Below, piece by piece: positions 4,163 through 39,319 of a DNA stretch of 39,319 nucleotides. Under the pieces are notes generated by a model that saw nothing but the letters and a program-made list of their open reading frames with translations, was not told the DNA's origin and made no database searches. A program made the translations under genes and the position numbers. The first letter of the stretch is position 1. Every line of letters begins with the position of its first letter. The DNA is taken from IMG/VR virus record IMGVR_UViG_3300048819_000214, positions 1 through 39,319 of that record. One strand, given 5' to 3'. Origin of the DNA: a virus. Its lineage: Duplodnaviria; Caudoviricetes.

Positions 4163-4852
4163 ATGAACATGAATTCATTGAAAGATAGTATTCTTAAGCA
4201 TGTCAATAAAAAAAATAGTGGTTGCTGGGAATGGCTTAGAGCCATGAATAGTAATCAAGGAGTTATTGGGTTTAAAGGAAAAACATATAGCGTTAGAAAA
4301 TCTCTTTTTAAAATATATTATCCATTTATTGAAATTGAAGGTTATCTTCGAAATTCATGCTCTGATAAAAAATGTGTAAATCCAGAACATCAACTAACTA
4401 GAGACCAATATTTTTGGACATTCATATCGAAAAATCCTAATACAAATTGTTGGGAATGGACTGGGCAATTAAAAGGTGGTTATGGCTATTTTAGCATTAA
4501 TCATAAAGACATTCCGGTTCATAGATTAATGTTTAAAAAATACAAAGGAATTATTCCCCCAAAAATTAATGTTTGCCATTCTTGTGATAATCCTAAATGC
4601 TGTAATCCAGATCATTTATGGCTTGGAACCCAGGCAGACAATATAGCTGATATGCATATAAAAAAACGTGATTATAAATCTTTTGGTGAAAATCATCATA
4701 CTGCAAAAATTAATGAAAATAATGTACGAGAAATTAGAAAAAAATATAAAGAAGGCATGAAAATGAAATCTATTCATCGCCTTCTAAATATTCCTTACCG
4801 AACTATTCAACATGTTTGCACTGGAAATACATGGAAACATATTAAGGATTAA
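4163..4852 (+). CDS. Free-standing HNH homing endonuclease (two HNH-like units plus C-terminal DNA-binding helix region)
   Basis: CWEW...CVNPEH and CWEWTG...VCHSCDNPKCCNPDHLWLGTQADNIADM motifs; antisense to the tail operon. Confidence 0.9.
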   Translation: MNMNSLKDSILKHVNKKNSGCWEWLRAMNSNQGVIGFKGKTYSVRKSLFKIYYPFIEIEGYLRNSCSDKKCVNPEHQLTRDQYFWTFISKNPNTNCWEWTGQLKGGYGYFSINHKDIPVHRLMFKKYKGIIPPKINVCHSCDNPKCCNPDHLWLGTQADNIADMHIKKRDYKSFGENHHTAKINENNVREIRKKYKEGMKMKSIHRLLNIPYRTIQHVCTGNTWKHIKD

Positions 4853-18229: not shown

Positions 18230-20492
18230 TTTCTTTTGATTTTAGTTTGTTAGCTTGATCTAATTGATTTTTAAGTTTTACAGACTCACGAATCGATTTA
18301 TGATTATCCATATTACGTTCATGCTCATGCTTTTCATGCTCAGTAATTCTATCAACATGATCCATCGTAACTTTATGACGTGCCTCAACCATTTTAGCTT
18401 GCGCATCGATTTGATGACTTTGAATTTCTGCTTTTGCTTTCTCGATCTGAACTTGTGATTCCACACTATCTTGCTGTAATTTATTTTGATCTAATGCTGC
18501 TTTAGCATCAGCTTGTTCTTTGTCGATTTGAATTTTAGCTAATGTAACTTGGTTATCAAATTCTTGTTGTTTTTGCTCGGCCTGCATTTTAGCTTGCTCT
18601 AATTGGCCTTTCTGTTGAATTTCTTGCATCTTAATTTTAGCGTTAACCATGGCAGGATCGTTAGCCATCATTTCTTTTTGTTGCTGCATTTGCTCTTGTT
18701 TCATTTGTTCTTTCTGTTTTTCCCATTCAGGCACCATTTGCTTTAAGACATCGGCATGATAACAAGTTAAATTTGAAACCAAAACATCTAAACCTGGACC
18801 ATTCATAAACTCAGCGAAGGATGGACTTGCCTGCATCAATAATACAATTTGTTGTAGAGCTTGATTCTTTTGTATTTGAAAATTAACACCAGCTTCAATG
18901 TAAACTTGCAATGCGCCTTTGTCGTAATCAAAAGAAGGTCCATTATTTTTAGGATCATTTACTTTCTTATATTCACGTTTTCCGTCCAATCCGACAACCG
19001 GAATCGTTCGTGGTGTCACAATATATAAAGGTAGTAAATCAACGCAAACACATGCAATATGCGTCCAAGCTTGTAAATACCCGGTAACAAATGGCATTGC
19101 CGCTTGATTACTTTGGGTCGCAGCAGTTTGAATAGCGACTCCACTCAATTGATTATCATTAATGCCTAGAGCTGCATCAAAACTTCCCAAAATAACTTGA
19201 GTAGTTGAATCAGTCATACCATATGTGGCCATAACTTCCTGGGGAATTGGAGTTCTTACCACTTCACGAGGTTGCGGCAATTGTTGATCAGGATTGTTTT
19301 CACTATATGCTTGATAAACATAAGTAGATGCTTGCTGGACATTATCATAAGCAGCTAAAAATTCTTCTTCCTGCGGCAATGATTCTTTGGCTATCATGAT
19401 TTTATGTTGAATCATGTTTTCTAATTCATTCCCTAATGTTTGACCTGCGAAATTCTTTAGCTTTTGAATGCCTTCGGCGTGATAAACATAAGGACGTGTC
19501 ATTTGCATGGTAGAATTATTTGTTCCGTCGCCATCCCGTAGAATTATGGAATTACCATCAACAAATATTAAGGGTAAGTATGTATAGTCTGTTTCTTTGT
19601 AGTCTAGTATTTCTGATTCTATTAGACGGTATCTGCATATGGTTTCTAATTCAGTGTTACGTGATTTACCTATCACCGCCGGAATCTGAGCAATAAAACC
19701 TTCTTTTTTCCAATATTCTTGGAACTTTTCATAATTCTTTTCTGTCATTACTCGACCATTGGCGAGCTTAACAATTTTAGCTTTCTTTTTTTTCTTTTCC
19801 CAATATTCGCCAAGAATAACAATATCTTCTGAACCGTTTCTATAAGACCAATTAAAACCTTCAATATTGCGTGAAAAACTCAAACTATTAATATCAACTG
19901 TTGGATTTTCTCTTTCGAAATCTTCTCGTGCTTGTGGGAAAATTTCATAGCAATAACGCCCATCTGCTTTATGACTATAACGAGCCATAGGATCAAAACC
20001 ACAAAGCGTTGGATCAAATACACGACCTAATTTAATGACTTGGTTGAAACTCATATTGCTAGCGTAATCAGTCCACACTTTAACTGTAGAAAATCCGCCA
20101 CTCAATAAATCTTTATAGACTTCGTAAGAACATGAATTTTTATTTGCTTCATAAATAATATGTCGTATATGACCTTCAACGAGTTTAATTGTTTCAAGAT
20201 CGATTGGCACACCATCTGCTGGTGTTATTTCGATAGAAGGCTCATGCTTAGCAAATTCACCCAACAATCGACTGATATAAGCTTCGAGAATATTGAATTC
20301 TATAATAGGTTTTTTAAGAGTGGTAAGAATATCTTTTTCTTGCGAATCAAGAGATGTTTCAAAAACAAAACGTCTGAAATGATGAAATCTGTCATAGTTC
20401 GGCTTAAAATAAAGATAACTCGCATTAATATTTTTCTTGAGACGATCTAGGGTTTCTGTTCCAGTTTTGCTAATGCTTTTAGCGATTGGCAT
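18207..20492 (-). CDS. Portal protein, P22 gp1-like
   Basis: 761 aa, directly after terL; FDPMARYSHKADGRYC and SGVAI motifs; long C-terminal coiled coil. Confidence 0.9.
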   Translation of the reverse strand: MPIAKSISKTGTETLDRLKKNINASYLYFKPNYDRFHHFRRFVFETSLDSQEKDILTTLKKPIIEFNILEAYISRLLGEFAKHEPSIEITPADGVPIDLETIKLVEGHIRHIIYEANKNSCSYEVYKDLLSGGFSTVKVWTDYASNMSFNQVIKLGRVFDPTLCGFDPMARYSHKADGRYCYEIFPQAREDFERENPTVDINSLSFSRNIEGFNWSYRNGSEDIVILGEYWEKKKKKAKIVKLANGRVMTEKNYEKFQEYWKKEGFIAQIPAVIGKSRNTELETICRYRLIESEILDYKETDYTYLPLIFVDGNSIILRDGDGTNNSTMQMTRPYVYHAEGIQKLKNFAGQTLGNELENMIQHKIMIAKESLPQEEEFLAAYDNVQQASTYVYQAYSENNPDQQLPQPREVVRTPIPQEVMATYGMTDSTTQVILGSFDAALGINDNQLSGVAIQTAATQSNQAAMPFVTGYLQAWTHIACVCVDLLPLYIVTPRTIPVVGLDGKREYKKVNDPKNNGPSFDYDKGALQVYIEAGVNFQIQKNQALQQIVLLMQASPSFAEFMNGPGLDVLVSNLTCYHADVLKQMVPEWEKQKEQMKQEQMQQQKEMMANDPAMVNAKIKMQEIQQKGQLEQAKMQAEQKQQEFDNQVTLAKIQIDKEQADAKAALDQNKLQQDSVESQVQIEKAKAEIQSHQIDAQAKMVEARHKVTMDHVDRITEHEKHEHERNMDNHKSIRESVKLKNQLDQANKLKSKENEGEENV

Positions 20493-23100
20493 ATCTTTTA
20501 TCCTTTATTTGCTGAGTACGAGCAAAGCTGCTAGTGATTCTTTGAGCAACTTTCTTGTCTTTTTCCTTGATGATTTCTCTATAAGCACTTTCTGGTAATG
20601 CAAAAGTTAAGGTACAAGCATCTGCTTCGTCAGGCGATCGAATGCCGCGCTTCTTCATGTCCTCTTTCTTTTCTAAACAAATTCGCCCTTTAGAATCAAC
20701 TTTATATCGAGTTCCGCAAATATCAGCATGTAATGTATCAAGATCAGGGATTTGAATAGGTGCTTCTGATAACCATTCTTTAAATTCGCCCCAGATTTCC
20801 GCGCGCTTATTTAAATATCGTTTAGAGTTAATGGGAGATGAACCCCCATTAACAGGATAAATAATGTCACCATGCCCTAACTCAAGAAGTCTGTCATAAA
20901 CGCCGGCACCTAATCCGCCCACATCAATACAGACCTTTTTAGGTTCTTCTTTTTCAATAATTAAGTGTAATAATCCCGCAACTTCCATTGTATCTTTTTT
21001 GCTATAAGAAACAATCTTTTCAATTTTTCTGCCCCTTCGCCAACAAAAACACGTTCGATCATCACCAAATCTTGCAATATCAGCGCCGATTATCAATGAT
21101 CCAACCCCTTCAGCCTCAGATTTTCGAGCATTTGTGACTAATTCTGGTGAAATAAATGAATCTTCGCTACTGGTTAAAAATGCTTCAATGCTTGAGTTGG
21201 GGTATTCTTGGCAGAATCCTAGCTCGCCATCATCACCTCCCACTGATAACTCAACGATCTTATAACGACGCCAAGCGAGTTGCGCATAGGTCAATCCATA
21301 GGTTTCAATTAACGCTAGCTCTTTCTCTTCTGGCGCAAAGTCCGCATCAGGTTCGCGTTGATATTCCGCCTGCCAGAACCAAGGTACAAATATTGCAATG
21401 AAGTCCGACAGCCCCGCTTCGGCTAATTGCCATTGTTGGTGGAAGTAGTTACCGACACCATTAGCAGTCGATTCAAAGATAACCTCAGTGCCTTTCTCGC
21501 TAGGAACGGCCTGCAGGATCCCCTTGGCGTGTTCTGAGGCGTTCGCCCAAAATGCCACCTCGCTATTTGAAACGATGCCGGATGTTGTCTGGTAATTATG
21601 GTCAGGATGATCGACTTCAATATCCCAGACCGATTCAATCTTTCTTGGGGTGATCGATCTCACTTTAGAGTAAACAATACCATCTTTGATAATGCTTTTT
21701 TCTTTATGTTTATTGGGATCTAATTGCTGGTAACGCTTCATTGCGTCCCCACTCATACAGAATAGATAAATATCTTTTGTTTCTTTGTCGTAACGCATTC
21801 TTGATTTTCTGCGCACTGAGCAAGCCCCGTAGAGCGCCCAACATATGCGCTGGAGCTGCCGAGATATTTTTTCATGAATACTGGGCGCTGATATTTTAGT
21901 AACTTGTGTTTTGCTTCCATCCCCATCCAAATAACCTTTAAATACTCCCTCCAGAAACTCAGGGTTAGTTTTAAAAAACCATGCAGGAATGTGTTTATTG
22001 GCTACGCGGCCACATATTTCATTGATTGCGCTGGCTAGAAATTTACCATTTAAAATAGTTCTTTTACGATTAGTTCCCGCATCTATCTTATGTTGTATAG
22101 ATGTTTCTAAGCCGAAAGTGCCTTTGATTGCATTTTCAATGTAAGATTCATCTTTATGATAGGCAAAAGATAAATAAGCGTAATTATCTTTTACATGCCC
22201 CTCAGCAAGGTAATAACCAATCAAATATCCAAAATCATAATTCAAGGTAAAATCGAATTGCTCTAAATGCTTAGATCCACCGCCTTGCGCTCTTGGCTTA
22301 TTCTTTAGAGCAAATGACCATGTATTGATTTCATTTGTTAGCTCAATTTTTGGCATAGCAATAAAATCAGCGGCAGTAATATCTTTTAGCTCTTTGTATC
22401 CGTCTATTGTCAGCACCTTATGATCGGCCGTTAAATGAATTGGTTCGCCGGATAACCAGCAATCAAGGGTATAAGCAAGCTTTTGACCTGTGTATATCTT
22501 CTCTTTTATAGGAGCTATTGCGCCTGATGATGTAACAATTAAATCGCCTATTTCTATTTCTCGCATGGCCTTTGTAGATCCATCTGCCAAAACAATTAAA
22601 CTGTCCTCGCTTAAACACCCATGGAACAATTGAATCGTGCTTGAGCGACCCACAGCTTTGTTCTCAGCAGTACCAATCTTATAACCTGAATCAAGCCCAT
22701 CAAAGATCAATTCTTTGGAATTACTACGCGATGCATCTGGTCTAACAATGGCAGGACAATTCTCATAATATCGCTGCGTCATTTTGAAAAGATTGTTTGT
22801 AGCGTCTAACGCGTGGGTAAGGATAAAAGTTTGAAGTCCGAACGAATGCGTGGTGATATGAAAGAAACGACCACCTATTAAGGTGGACATGCCCTGCTGT
22901 CGCCCTTTCAAGATTATGGCGCGAACTTTTCCCGTAATTAGCTTTTGATGTTCTAATTTATCGTGAACATATATTTGTGCTTTGTTAAATTCAAACGGGA
23001 TTATGCTTTGCGACTTAGTTCTAATCTTAAGACACTTTTTGGCATAGTGCTTAAAGTCATCTCGAAGTCGTCGACGGATTTGTTTTTCGCGCTCATCCAT
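20479..23100 (-). CDS. terL: Terminase large subunit containing an intein
   Basis: Walker A ILKGRQQGMST, Walker B LFHG/SEVAFW, ESTANG coupling motif, nuclease IGADIARFGDD...SPDEADA. Confidence 0.95.
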   Translation of the reverse strand: MDEREKQIRRRLRDDFKHYAKKCLKIRTKSQSIIPFEFNKAQIYVHDKLEHQKLITGKVRAIILKGRQQGMSTLIGGRFFHITTHSFGLQTFILTHALDATNNLFKMTQRYYENCPAIVRPDASRSNSKELIFDGLDSGYKIGTAENKAVGRSSTIQLFHGCLSEDSLIVLADGSTKAMREIEIGDLIVTSSGAIAPIKEKIYTGQKLAYTLDCWLSGEPIHLTADHKVLTIDGYKELKDITAADFIAMPKIELTNEINTWSFALKNKPRAQGGGSKHLEQFDFTLNYDFGYLIGYYLAEGHVKDNYAYLSFAYHKDESYIENAIKGTFGLETSIQHKIDAGTNRKRTILNGKFLASAINEICGRVANKHIPAWFFKTNPEFLEGVFKGYLDGDGSKTQVTKISAPSIHEKISRQLQRICWALYGACSVRRKSRMRYDKETKDIYLFCMSGDAMKRYQQLDPNKHKEKSIIKDGIVYSKVRSITPRKIESVWDIEVDHPDHNYQTTSGIVSNSEVAFWANASEHAKGILQAVPSEKGTEVIFESTANGVGNYFHQQWQLAEAGLSDFIAIFVPWFWQAEYQREPDADFAPEEKELALIETYGLTYAQLAWRRYKIVELSVGGDDGELGFCQEYPNSSIEAFLTSSEDSFISPELVTNARKSEAEGVGSLIIGADIARFGDDRTCFCWRRGRKIEKIVSYSKKDTMEVAGLLHLIIEKEEPKKVCIDVGGLGAGVYDRLLELGHGDIIYPVNGGSSPINSKRYLNKRAEIWGEFKEWLSEAPIQIPDLDTLHADICGTRYKVDSKGRICLEKKEDMKKRGIRSPDEADACTLTFALPESAYREIIKEKDKKVAQRITSSFARTQQIKDKRYANR
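21565..22617 (-). mobile_element. 351-aa intein with LAGLIDADG endonuclease
   Basis: Starts CLSEDSLIVLADG, ends VWDIEV...HNYQTTSGIVSN before extein Ser; YLIGYYLAEG and FKGYLDGDGS motifs. Confidence 0.93.
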
Positions 23101-23503: not shown

Positions 23504-24724
23504 CTAGACTAATTCATTAAATGTCTTGCCGTTGGATTCAAGTATAGCATCTTTACCGCTAAACTTTTGAAATCGACGGATAATAATGTCGCAATACGAT
23601 TCAGATAACTCCATCATAAAGCATTGACGGTTTGTTTTCTCGCAAGCGATTAGGGTTGAGCCAGAGCCGCCGAATAGATCAATAACATTTTTAGATTCTT
23701 TTGCGTACTCATTGAAACACCATTCAGCTAATGCTATGGGTTTTTGTGTTGGATGAACCCGACCTTCACCATTTTCTGAAGCTTTTATCATTCCTTTCCA
23801 TAAATGCCTAAATATGCGAACAGATTTGGCTTTAGATTTAATCCATGCTAATTCACAATCAGAGTTGCCATCTCTTTGTTTATTATCCTCACGTTTATCC
23901 CAAACCAGCCAATTAGGAGTTTCCGGTAGCGAATGGCAATAGTGATTTGCACCCCAGAAAAGCATTGTTGAAATACTCAATGACTCACACAAATTATAAG
24001 CATCGATTGCTGTTTGAGTAGATTCATCGCCAATAATGGCATTGTATTTTCCAGCTTTAGTTGCATGACCTCTCGATGCTTTTACACGATCAGTTTTTTC
24101 ATTTATCCCATAAGGAGGATCAGTAAAAACTAAATCGATCTCACCCGGTTTCATTCCTCCGCTCTCACAAAGCAAATCAAGATTATCAATCATAATTGAA
24201 TTGCCGCACATGAGCCGATGGTTTCCTAGTATCCAAATATCGCCGAGCTTAGTGACTGGCTCTGCGGCAACTTCGGGAACTTCGTCCTCGTCGCATAGCC
24301 CTTCATTCAATATCTCAACCGTAGGCAAATCAAGGTTAAATTCTGAGAAATCGAAATCGGGTAAATCGGCAATTTCGGAAAGCAATAGATCGGTATTGGT
24401 TGAGCCTTGTTTCGCTAGCTCATTATCAAGAATTCGGTAAGCTTTGATTTCATCTGCAGTTAAGTCAGCAGCACTAACACAAAGTATCTCTTTGTACTTA
24501 AGCGCCTTAGCCGCTTCAAATCGAGCGTGTCCCGCGACAATCACATTATCTTTATCAATTACTATAGGTTGTTTGAACCCAAATTGATCCATGCTCTTTT
24601 TAATTGATTTGATTTGAATAACAGGATGGTCTTTAGGATTGTTTTTATAAGGCGTGATTTGATCGATTGAGTGAACTATTAATTCGATATTCTTTCCATT
24701 CATTGGAATACTATGCAAAGCCAT
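23504..24724 (-). CDS. ParB/Srx-domain DNA methyltransferase (N4C/N6A, beta class)
   Basis: N-terminal PYKNNPK...FGFKQPIVID...AGHARFEA; DPPYG, HPTQKP and DLFGGSGST motifs. Confidence 0.92.
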   Translation of the reverse strand: MALHSIPMNGKNIELIVHSIDQITPYKNNPKDHPVIQIKSIKKSMDQFGFKQPIVIDKDNVIVAGHARFEAAKALKYKEILCVSAADLTADEIKAYRILDNELAKQGSTNTDLLLSEIADLPDFDFSEFNLDLPTVEILNEGLCDEDEVPEVAAEPVTKLGDIWILGNHRLMCGNSIMIDNLDLLCESGGMKPGEIDLVFTDPPYGINEKTDRVKASRGHATKAGKYNAIIGDESTQTAIDAYNLCESLSISTMLFWGANHYCHSLPETPNWLVWDKREDNKQRDGNSDCELAWIKSKAKSVRIFRHLWKGMIKASENGEGRVHPTQKPIALAEWCFNEYAKESKNVIDLFGGSGSTLIACEKTNRQCFMMELSESYCDIIIRRFQKFSGKDAILESNGKTFNELV

Positions 24725-27519: not shown

Positions 27520-28014
27520 TTAAGGCTTAATCTTATATATACCTGACCACATCCCATCATGCAAATCTGTAGCGCGTCCTTTGACTTGCTTAGCCCACCT
27601 TGAATCCATCATAGCATCAGCAGCCCCGTGGTAATCATGGATTGAAAGTGCTCTTAACATGTCATGAAATTCTAAAACTTTTTTCCAACCCATGAACGCG
27701 AAATCGATCAGAACGATTTGACGATCTTGGTTCAGATCCTTATACCAAGGAAAAGTATCGTTCCATTGATTATAAAAATATGTAATGTCATCCAAAAGTT
27801 GTTTATTTCGCCATTCAAGAGATAAACCACGAGCGGTCAAATTATATCCTACGCCTATCGTGATATTGCCAAGAGTATCAGTGTATGGGAATTCGTGATC
27901 GCCTTCGTGGAGAACGAGAGATTGAATTAGTATAGCCAAAAAATCAGGAGTAAACATACTTTGCTCCGATATTAAATGAACTAAATTCTCATTTTCCATA
28001 TTAGCATATGTCAT
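27520..28014 (-). CDS. Endolysin, T4-lysozyme-like (GH24); alternative start at 27957
   Basis: E-x8-D-x5-T triad (HEGDHEFPYTDTLGNITIGVG) and AADAMMDSRWAKQVKGRA. Confidence 0.92.
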   Translation of the reverse strand: MTYANMENENLVHLISEQSMFTPDFLAILIQSLVLHEGDHEFPYTDTLGNITIGVGYNLTARGLSLEWRNKQLLDDITYFYNQWNDTFPWYKDLNQDRQIVLIDFAFMGWKKVLEFHDMLRALSIHDYHGAADAMMDSRWAKQVKGRATDLHDGMWSGIYKIKP

Positions 28015-28395
28015 GGTTGATAAACTTTAATTCTTACGATGATCTGACCTTTCGGAATTATTGTCTTTTTGTTAATCAAAAGTCTTACAATCTGTGAATC
28101 ATCATCAAATAGATTCGCCCTCACTAAACTATCTAAAAGTACTTTGAGAATATTGTCAAAGGTCCCTCCGACGATTATCCGGCGCATAAACATCAACTTC
28201 TAAATCAATTAAAGCGTCACCAAGCGATTTTAGCTGTCTAGCCCTGGTGATGATCCAAACTTTCCAATAAAACCGCGTGGTGGCCTCAGTATTAACTCTA
28301 GTCTGGTATACAGCTCCACTTTTTAAAGTCCTAAGCCTTCCAATCCGTTTATAATTATTAACACTTGGAGCATAAGGAAGAATTAATTCAATCAT
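28011..28395 (-). CDS. rusA: RusA-family Holliday junction resolvase split by a +1 frameshift at 28161-28155 (127 aa if joined)
   Basis: Frame 1: LPYAPSVNNY...PDNRRRDL*. Frame +1: DNILKVLLDSL...DDDSQIV. Joined, they give the RusA RRRDLDNxxK...DD motif. Confidence 0.88.
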
Positions 28396-28650
28396 TTATC
28401 GTTTCCATTTTGACAAATCGATTTTGGCAGCTTCTTTTTGTTCGGGCGAAGCACTTAAGTGCCATTGTAACAAAGGAGAAAGGGGGGAGGTATTTTGTGA
28501 TGATTTTTTTAGCACTTCAGAAGCCCAAGGAATTTCAGGTTTAATATATCCAGTTTCTTCTCTTACATTATTTTTATACAAAGGTTTGTCATCCCACTTT
28601 TTTTTCTCCATCAATATTTCACCCACTTCATTAGTAATATATTTATTCAT
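28396..28650 (-). CDS. Hypothetical protein
   Basis: Coupled ORF in the replication operon. Confidence 0.5.
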   Translation of the reverse strand: MNKYITNEVGEILMEKKKWDDKPLYKNNVREETGYIKPEIPWASEVLKKSSQNTSPLSPLLQWHLSASPEQKEAAKIDLSKWKR

Positions 28651-29234
28651 TTTAAAATTTTTCCTAACTTTTTAAGAAACTTTATTCTTGAAACTGCATA
28701 TTCAATTATTGTATTGAGTTTTTCTATATCAATTTCTTCTAATATATCTTTAGCTGTCCAATCAAATAAACATCCATTATAGATTTCTTCAGTAGAATAA
28801 TGATCACGATAATAATCAGAAGTAGAGGGTTCAATATTTTCATATGGAGTACAACTCATACATAAACCTTTTTGGATATATCCTTCTGCTCCTGCTTTAT
28901 TACATTTATTACAATTGGCTATACATTTACAAGTTAATTGATTAATAGAACTTCGAGTATTGTATCTATAAATATCCTCATTACAAAATTGACAAGTTCC
29001 AATTTTTTCGCTGCATAAAGAAACTAAATATAAAAGTTGTTGTATATTTTCTATTTCAAATTTTTGCATAATAAATTTTACAGGATATTTATATTTAAAA
29101 TTTTCAACTTCCAAATCACCATAAGAAACTTTATAAAAATCTTTTTCATTATATAAATTATAAATCTCATTTTTGTTTTGTTCATTTTTAGTAAGAGTCA
29201 AAATTTTATTTTTCTTACTTATATTGAATGTCAT
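28647..29234 (-). CDS. Cys-rich hypothetical protein
   Basis: CQFC, CKC, CNKC and CMSC motifs; ATGA overlap with the rep stop. Confidence 0.6.
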   Translation of the reverse strand: MTFNISKKNKILTLTKNEQNKNEIYNLYNEKDFYKVSYGDLEVENFKYKYPVKFIMQKFEIENIQQLLYLVSLCSEKIGTCQFCNEDIYRYNTRSSINQLTCKCIANCNKCNKAGAEGYIQKGLCMSCTPYENIEPSTSDYYRDHYSTEEIYNGCLFDWTAKDILEEIDIEKLNTIIEYAVSRIKFLKKLGKILK

Positions 29235-38725: not shown

Positions 38726-39319
38726 TTACAATACTGAATAACCAATAATAATCGTGCCATTAAGAGCTGTGGCAGCAGTAAGGTTGTAAATCGTGAGCGT
38801 AGCCGTTCCTGCGCCAGCAACTACTTTAAAGTTAACGTTTTGAGTAGTATTTGTTCCACCTTGAATCGTTAATCCAATAACTGATGTAGTTGAAATAAAG
38901 GTATTTGTCCAAGTAATAACATAAGTACCTGCGCCCGCGGTTGTTAATGCTGAAGTCGTCAAATAACCAGCAACACCATTAGCTGTCACTGCATTTGCAG
39001 CCTCAGTGCCATTAACTTTAGCTAAAACAATGCTAGATCCAGCAGCCATTGTATTAACAATATTTTTCTGCATAACATTAGCCAGCAATACACCTGAATC
39101 AGCTACAGCACCGGCGGTCCCACTGAAAACTACAAGATCAGTACTTATTACAGGCAACGTAGGTAATGGAATATTACCGGCATCTACAACTTGATTTAAT
39201 GTATAAGTTGCAACACCTTGTGTATAAACAACTGTTGGTGTGCATTCTGTATAAGTTCCTGTGCCCAATTGATTAATTGATCCTGTGTACAAATAAATAA
39301 CATCAAAAATATCATTTGG
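38726..39319 (-). CDS. 3' part of the join-spanning virion protein (see 1..446)
   Basis: Open frame to the window end; stop at 38726. Confidence 0.85.
   Translation of the reverse strand, partial: PNDIFDVIYLYTGSINQLGTGTYTECTPTVVYTQGVATYTLNQVVDAGNIPLPTLPVISTDLVVFSGTAGAVADSGVLLANVMQKNIVNTMAAGSSIVLAKVNGTEAANAVTANGVAGYLTTSALTTAGAGTYVITWTNTFISTTSVIGLTIQGGTNTTQNVNFKVVAGAGTATLTIYNLTAATALNGTIIIGYSVL
39021..39319. repeat. Terminal direct repeat, right copy
   Basis: 294/299 identical to 1-299. Confidence 0.97.

Follow-up and report, generated by a model that had tools for sequence, protein, structure and literature searches.

The rusA gene of an uncultured tailed phage is cut by an in-frame TGA between the codons for two catalytic aspartates, and this raises the question of whether the gene is broken or whether ribosomes change frame at the stop to complete the enzyme. 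The window, meaning the whole stretch of DNA that was analyzed, is the entire 39,319-base contig of this phage, which encodes a P22-like portal, an intein-bearing terminase, a replication initiator, a Sak4-like annealase, and an endolysin. Sequencing runs that contain the window are labelled peat or permafrost metagenome, and no close phage or plasmid relative was found in GenBank.

A cassette within the catalytic motif of RusA

On the minus strand, positions 28175-28150 read CGT CGG AGG GAC CTT TGA C AAT ATT. The frame-0 ORF of rusA (28156..28395, minus strand) comprises 79 codons and TGA, and its 79-aa translation terminates with RRRDL-stop. This N-terminal half carries R77 and D78, and the +1-frame half (28011..28157, minus strand), which runs from D80 to a stop, carries D80, N81, K84, and D99. 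When aligned with E. coli RusA and with the D70N mutant of that protein, these residues match R69, D70, D72, N73, K76, and D91, respectively; D70, D72, N73, K76, and D91 are named catalytic or supporting in passages of two reports (PMC10956419, PMC1636454). A +1 step of one base at the stop joins the halves into a 127-aa RusA that keeps the equivalents of R69, D70, D72, N73, K76, D90, and D91. The stop thus separates the equivalents of D70 and D72, the first two catalytic aspartates; the 79-aa product holds R77 and D78 alone of the catalytic or supporting set and cannot form the active site.

The joined product matched PHROG 34 (E 5e-24) and E. coli RusA 1q8r (E 8e-10), and the C-terminal half alone scored 31.5 bits against PF05866, passing the cut-off of 22.8. 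Scores with the E. coli-type RusA model (NCBIfam PRK09786) were 41.9 and 41.5 bits, below the curated cut-off of 200. The profile matches and the alignment confirm the original prediction that the shift restores a 127-aa RusA with the D-x-D-N-x-x-K motif. Like the RusA family of dimeric, Mg-dependent Holliday-junction resolvases (PF05866, PHROG 34; E. coli DLP12 RusA, PDB 1q8r, 2h8c), the window protein keeps the catalytic-residue equivalents; unlike it, the window protein falls in a clade from uncultured phages in which the N-terminal segment is longer, shares 35-38% identity with its best GenBank phage matches, and would reach full length by a frame change.

In bacterial prfB, a stretch resembling a Shine-Dalgarno (SD) element lies 3 nt before CTTT, and the UGA stop is followed by C, as described in a passage of PMC12421855. 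The window has the same core elements, and so does a second phage locus, L121: an SD-like GGAGG (28165..28169, minus strand; within the Arg codons CGG AGG) that ends 3 nt before the slip codon, CTTT, and UGA then C. The slippery stop CTT TGA C spans 28155..28161 (minus strand), with the three T at 28158-28160. The intervening codon GAC (28162..28164, minus strand) codes for catalytic D78 and reads GAT in a second haplotype and in L121; this GAC/GAT spacer does not match the weak UAU/UCU spacer typical of prfB. A prfB-type cassette with prfB spacing inside the catalytic D-x-D, as had been claimed, is therefore what the window contains. GG_AGG has been recorded as an SD variant in part of PMC5009743.

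GGAGG-NNN-CTTTGAC occurs a single time in the window, with 0.04 occurrences expected at one mismatch or fewer, and no second cassette-like site was found there under one loose pattern. The SD duplex energy was -10.0 kcal/mol for GGAGG in the cassette versus +0.7 to -5.4 kcal/mol in 15 intact clade genes, calculated with the sequence that we take to be the anti-SD core. The host machinery fits a +1 shift at this site, given that an SD precedes most of the phage's starts and that TGA closes 7 of its 35 genes. Read-through or reassignment of UGA was rejected, given those TGA-ending genes and the next in-frame stop, no more than 8 or 13 codons further on. Both points count for the +1 reading. Slippage during transcription is not likely where the run is three T long. 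No unusual RNA structure was found flanking the site (z -0.1 to 0.7), and there was no RNA run among the listed runs that contain the window.

The choice of CGG AGG had also been called unexpected for this genome. Both codons are indeed rare genome-wide (CGG 2.8% and AGG 3.5% of 282 Arg codons), but they make up 8 of the 13 Arg codons of rusA, against 6% genome-wide, and 6 of its 11 other Arg codons, with a chance of about 0.2 for such a pair within the gene. The rare-codon argument is thus weak, because CGG and AGG are common in rusA itself, and the family-level count of GGAGG given below is better evidence than codon rarity. The richness of rusA in AGG and CGG possibly reflects recent import or low-expression tuning.

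The T run in contigs of four studies

Assembled contigs from 8 of the 17 listed runs were compared at the site. Contigs of X1, a possible source of the window, of X4 and X5 (one sample, study P4), and of X10 (study P9) bridge the T run without a gap. X3 (study P3) has the three T twice, once in a loose end and once close to where a second contig stops, and the contigs of X6, X7, and X8 do not reach the site. The three-T form is thus present in three studies besides the possible source and on two haplotypes, which counts for the +1 reading; no two-T form was found in the compared contigs, whose depth was 3-5 except for X1 (18.6), so that rare two-T variants could be hidden. The three T given for 28158-28160 in the original prediction were confirmed in contigs of four studies, and the extra T is real, no assembly error. 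Although contigs alone, mostly of depth 3-5, were compared, a sequencing or assembly error is contradicted by the occurrence of the T run in four studies, two haplotypes, and one distant phage, and we regard it as wholly improbable.

The second haplotype is common to X3 and X10, which belong to different studies. In it, the spacer codon is changed silently and the consensus Pro is regained at residue 71. Downstream, in the +1 frame, 7 codons are changed, 5 of them synonymously; the 2 replacements are both residues found in intact homologues, which counts for the +1 reading. An intact donor could, however, be the source of its downstream tract, the crossover then lying just 3' of the T run, and this counts against the +1 reading.

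Recurrence, rarity, and history of the cassette

L121 reads CGT CGG AGG GAT CTT TGA C AAT at the same rusA codon as the window. Its rusA shares 54% amino acid identity with that of the window in the N-terminal half and 64% in the C-terminal half, and its neighbouring genes match those of the window at 33-50%. One of these relatives concerns the Cys-rich gene that lies two ORFs upstream of rusA in the window (28647..29234, minus strand): its homologue (33% identity) stands directly upstream of rusA in L121, and no viral relative of the Cys-rich gene was found. Outside codons 67-81, the two rusA genes differ with a saturated pS of 0.80-0.83 and a pN of 0.31-0.41, which counts for the +1 reading. 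L121 is a different phage, because the neighbours match at 33-50%, rusA at 54-64%, and synonymous sites are saturated.

We ranked relatives by their N-terminal halves in a metagenome scan (20 of 64 parts read) and a viral scan (18 of 64 parts read). L121 is the sole interrupted gene among the best 80 of 371 metagenome loci, and its recurrence counts for the +1 reading; L120 and L150 end at contig edges and are not interrupted. All 28 viral loci are intact. The cassette is thus found in two divergent phages and in two haplotypes, yet in 1 of 80 and 0 of 28 loci ranked in this way. The original prediction had asked for conservation of the cassette in divergent relatives with constraint on both sides: L121 is one such relative, with pN well below pS, but most homologues do not have the cassette.

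GGAGG stands at the exact place in both cassette genes, in 1 of 140 unique intact loci, and in 0 of 18 intact clade loci, an enrichment that counts for the +1 reading even when taken as one event (Fisher p 0.014). CTT GAC is present at the site in 5 of the 18 intact clade genes, and the slip-stop is cheaply made, because a T added to CTT GAC gives CTT TGA C. The caveat attached to the original prediction, that one inserted T would suffice, therefore holds in part, and it is the exact SD and its recurrence with the slip-stop that carry the information.

Several results count against the +1 reading. The intact close relatives number more than 100, with 121 close proteins at full length and the caveat that gene callers under-report split genes. 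In addition, 82 viral loci ranked with the full-length query are intact, but such ranking favours intact genes, so these are not an unbiased denominator. The two cassette lineages probably represent one mutational event. No RusA with the cassette was found among pattern matches in viral contigs (0, 36, 1, 11) or among 113 matches in GTDB genomes (best HMM E 0.29); the DNA patterns demanded Arg-Asp ahead of the site and set residues behind it and thus miss other contexts.

A protein search for truncated halves returned 3 matches, all of them the window's own. Among 32 representatives checked, P0167 and P0181 end elsewhere. P0163 (79 aa) is a clade RusA N-terminal half that ends at the same codon with R-R-R-D-I; it may be a third cassette-like case or a contig end and was not counted. 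P0166 (88 aa, on a 34-kb contig), also a clade RusA, loses the frame directly after D-I with no immediate stop, apparently through a distinct one-base shift at this place.

The 15-codon tract around the cassette (28152..28197, minus strand) has 89% DNA identity between the window and L121, against 51-57% for the rest of the gene. Among 132 other distant pairs, the 45-nt tract reached a maximum of 84% and a mean of 59%; the tract limits were chosen after seeing the data. Without the four cassette codons, 7 of 9 codons are identical and the excess is marginal (p 0.05). L121 pairs with intact P0061 in both trees (support 93 and 95) and the window is placed elsewhere, but the AU test does not reject the window and L121 as one clade (p 0.37). 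Long conservation, transfer of the tract, and independent origin are all possible histories compatible with these data, and of the three, tract transfer alone is readily reconciled with a dead allele. The origin of the cassette may have been a tolerated insertion into D-L-D written with CTT GAC.

Constraint on rusA, the proposed shift, and its alternatives

The original prediction held that both halves of the gene are undecayed. Compared with 121 intact close proteins, the C-terminal halves of the window and L121 keep 8 of 8 conserved columns, which counts for the +1 reading, and their scores lie at the 43rd and 91st percentile. The claim fares less well for the N-terminal half of the window, which deviates in 4 of its 19 conserved columns, including a polymorphic one; at least 4 departures over 27 conserved columns are seen in 3 of the 121 intact proteins alone, and this counts against the +1 reading. 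In a 30-row tree with the tract columns dropped, the end branches of 0.33 and 0.29 (median 0.33) speak for that reading, whereas in a 128-row quick tree the window branch of 0.74 (median 0.42) speaks against it. There are six homopolymer runs of 4 or more in rusA, yet both insertions lie at one CTT-GAC instead; their place counts for the +1 reading, because such runs are likelier sites for random slips.

We consider it rather probable that a prfB-type +1 shift limits active RusA and, by coupling, perhaps the neighbouring endolysin, which lacks an SD. A working +1 shift is the best reading because of the prfB spacing, the place within D-x-D, the recurrence in L121, and the intact downstream half. 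By analogy with prfB, the ribosome would pause at the weak UGA-C and GGAGG would pair with 16S rRNA; tRNA-Leu would then slip from CUU to UUU, and GAC would be read as D80. Terminating ribosomes would release the 79-aa piece, which is without the equivalents of D72, K76, and D91 and is predicted to be inactive. RF2 would compete at the stop, so that the yield of RusA would vary with RF2, and the +1 shifting would act as an output limiter that caps active resolvase. Stronger pairing in the E site lowers shifting, according to a passage of PMC13245932 that gives UAU/UCU as the usual prfB spacer; the GAC/GAU spacer may accordingly lower shift efficiency, which counts against the +1 reading.

Shifted ribosomes would end at the ATGA in which the +1-frame stop of rusA overlaps the ATG of the endolysin gene (phage lysozyme; 27520..28014, minus strand) and may also feed its translation. 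Of 31 starts tested, that of the endolysin has the weakest SD (-0.4 kcal/mol), and the coupling is proposed because this SD-less ATG overlaps the stop. No endolysin homologue was found beside rusA in the 20 clade loci compared, so the coupling would be local to the window phage; its lack of conservation in L121 counts against the +1 reading. Relatives in the clade usually have a different small gene that begins at the rusA stop or close to it.

A +1 shift that gives active RusA, either as a limiter or tolerated correction or as a selected RF2 sensor, appears likely to us; the sensor taken by itself is a doubtful proposal, and the link to debranching before packaging that the original prediction drew is likewise conjectural. 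According to the sensor proposal, phages would have taken over the RF2 cassette of the host, and competition at termination would time the resolvase and the coupled endolysin to host translation late in infection, turning both on once RF2 runs short. The four core prfB elements with an RF2-specific stop in both lineages agree with this, as do the stop inside the catalytic motif, which would give all-or-none control per chain, and the overlapping SD-less endolysin start. However, RusA is not RF2 and there is no feedback loop, most relatives are without the cassette, adding a T to CTT GAC, which 5 of 18 intact clade genes have, is by itself enough to create UGA-C, and in the 20 clade loci compared the endolysin is not found behind rusA. 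We attach a similarly small weight to a dead allele, in which a T was inserted into a dispensable rusA with a chance CGG AGG, fixed by drift, and moved on a recombination tract, any frameshifting being incidental. Neither tree makes the window and L121 sisters, their 45-nt tract is more alike (89%) than in all 132 other distant pairs, the phage encodes the Sak4-like annealase, rusA is rich in AGG and CGG, and the N-terminal half of the window shows its four departures, all of which would suit such an allele. Yet the tract differs at 3-5 of 45 bases with no second lesion in either gene, all conserved columns of the C-terminal half are kept in both, one clade is not rejected (AU p 0.37), the excess identity of the tract becomes marginal once the four cassette codons are left out, and the SD-less endolysin would probably be starved too.

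An enzyme in two pieces, in which the N-terminal half and a C-terminal half separately initiated at a +1-frame TTG or ATG (28196-28187) assemble after translation, seems very unlikely. In both phages, some 13 codons upstream of the site are open in the +1 frame, but the starts there lack an SD (+0.6 to -0.7 kcal/mol in the window), and the cut would part D70 from D72, which belong to one metal site according to a passage of PMC1636454. Explanations other than a +1 shift or a dead allele are, taken together, quite improbable.

Relative to bacterial prfB, the favoured +1 shift shares the SD spacing, CTTT, UGA-C, the Leu-Asp junction, and a frame-0 product useless alone. It differs in that the product is the phage nuclease RusA, so there is no autoregulatory loop, in that the site is at codon 79 of 127 in the active site and not near the start, in the GAC/GAU spacer instead of the UAU/UCU described in part of PMC13245932, and in that a small minority of homologues have the cassette. 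As we read it, the cassette works like that of prfB but is not prfB autoregulation. A +1 shift just before UGA is also described for the tsh genes of Listeria phages PSA, A118, and A500 (CCC_UGA), although these use a proline codon, add a C-terminal extension to a structural protein, and have a short form that works (passages of PMC5009743); the window has CUU with an upstream SD and would need the shift to complete an enzyme active site. As in 'corrective' frameshifting, an indel would be compensated in translation and the unshifted product is useless, but most known cases are mitochondrial in the same passages (PMC5009743), whereas here the gene is that of a phage and has a prfB-type stimulator.

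In the parts of the literature covered, we found no phage gene with a prfB-type cassette, in agreement with the original prediction; the cluster tables of PMC3711429 and PRFect could contain one. According to the discussion of PRFect, every CUU-stop +1 frameshift in RECODE is that of prfB (PMC10885494), and prfB is listed as one cluster in the text of PMC3711429. The PRFect text also lists 'RusA/RuvC' among genes known to contain a frameshift, and the sole resolvase title among its references 35-42 is the 1991 ruvC identification paper (PMC10885494).

If the +1 reading is true, the prfB signal is used outside release-factor autoregulation, to complete the active site of a phage enzyme. The site would then be a short test case for the origin of recoding sites, in which Leu-Asp written as CTT GAC is one base from a shifty stop, and a warning that genes of this sort are labelled pseudogenes or left out by gene callers. 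If the RF2 dependence is used, DNA processing and lysis of the phage would be linked to the termination capacity of the host.

No tRNA genes and no exact terminal repeat were found in the window. One L005 protein matches both window ends (3-446, 38726-39319), and this match suggests a genome that is circular or permuted and was cut inside the gene matching that protein. The gene for the terminase large subunit (20479-23100, minus strand) contains an intein with a LAGLIDADG homing domain, and a lone HNH homing endonuclease gene (4163-4852, plus strand) lies on the opposite strand among late genes. Just upstream of the terminase genes, 23504-24724 (minus strand) encodes a ParB-like domain fused to an N6/N4 DNA methyltransferase.
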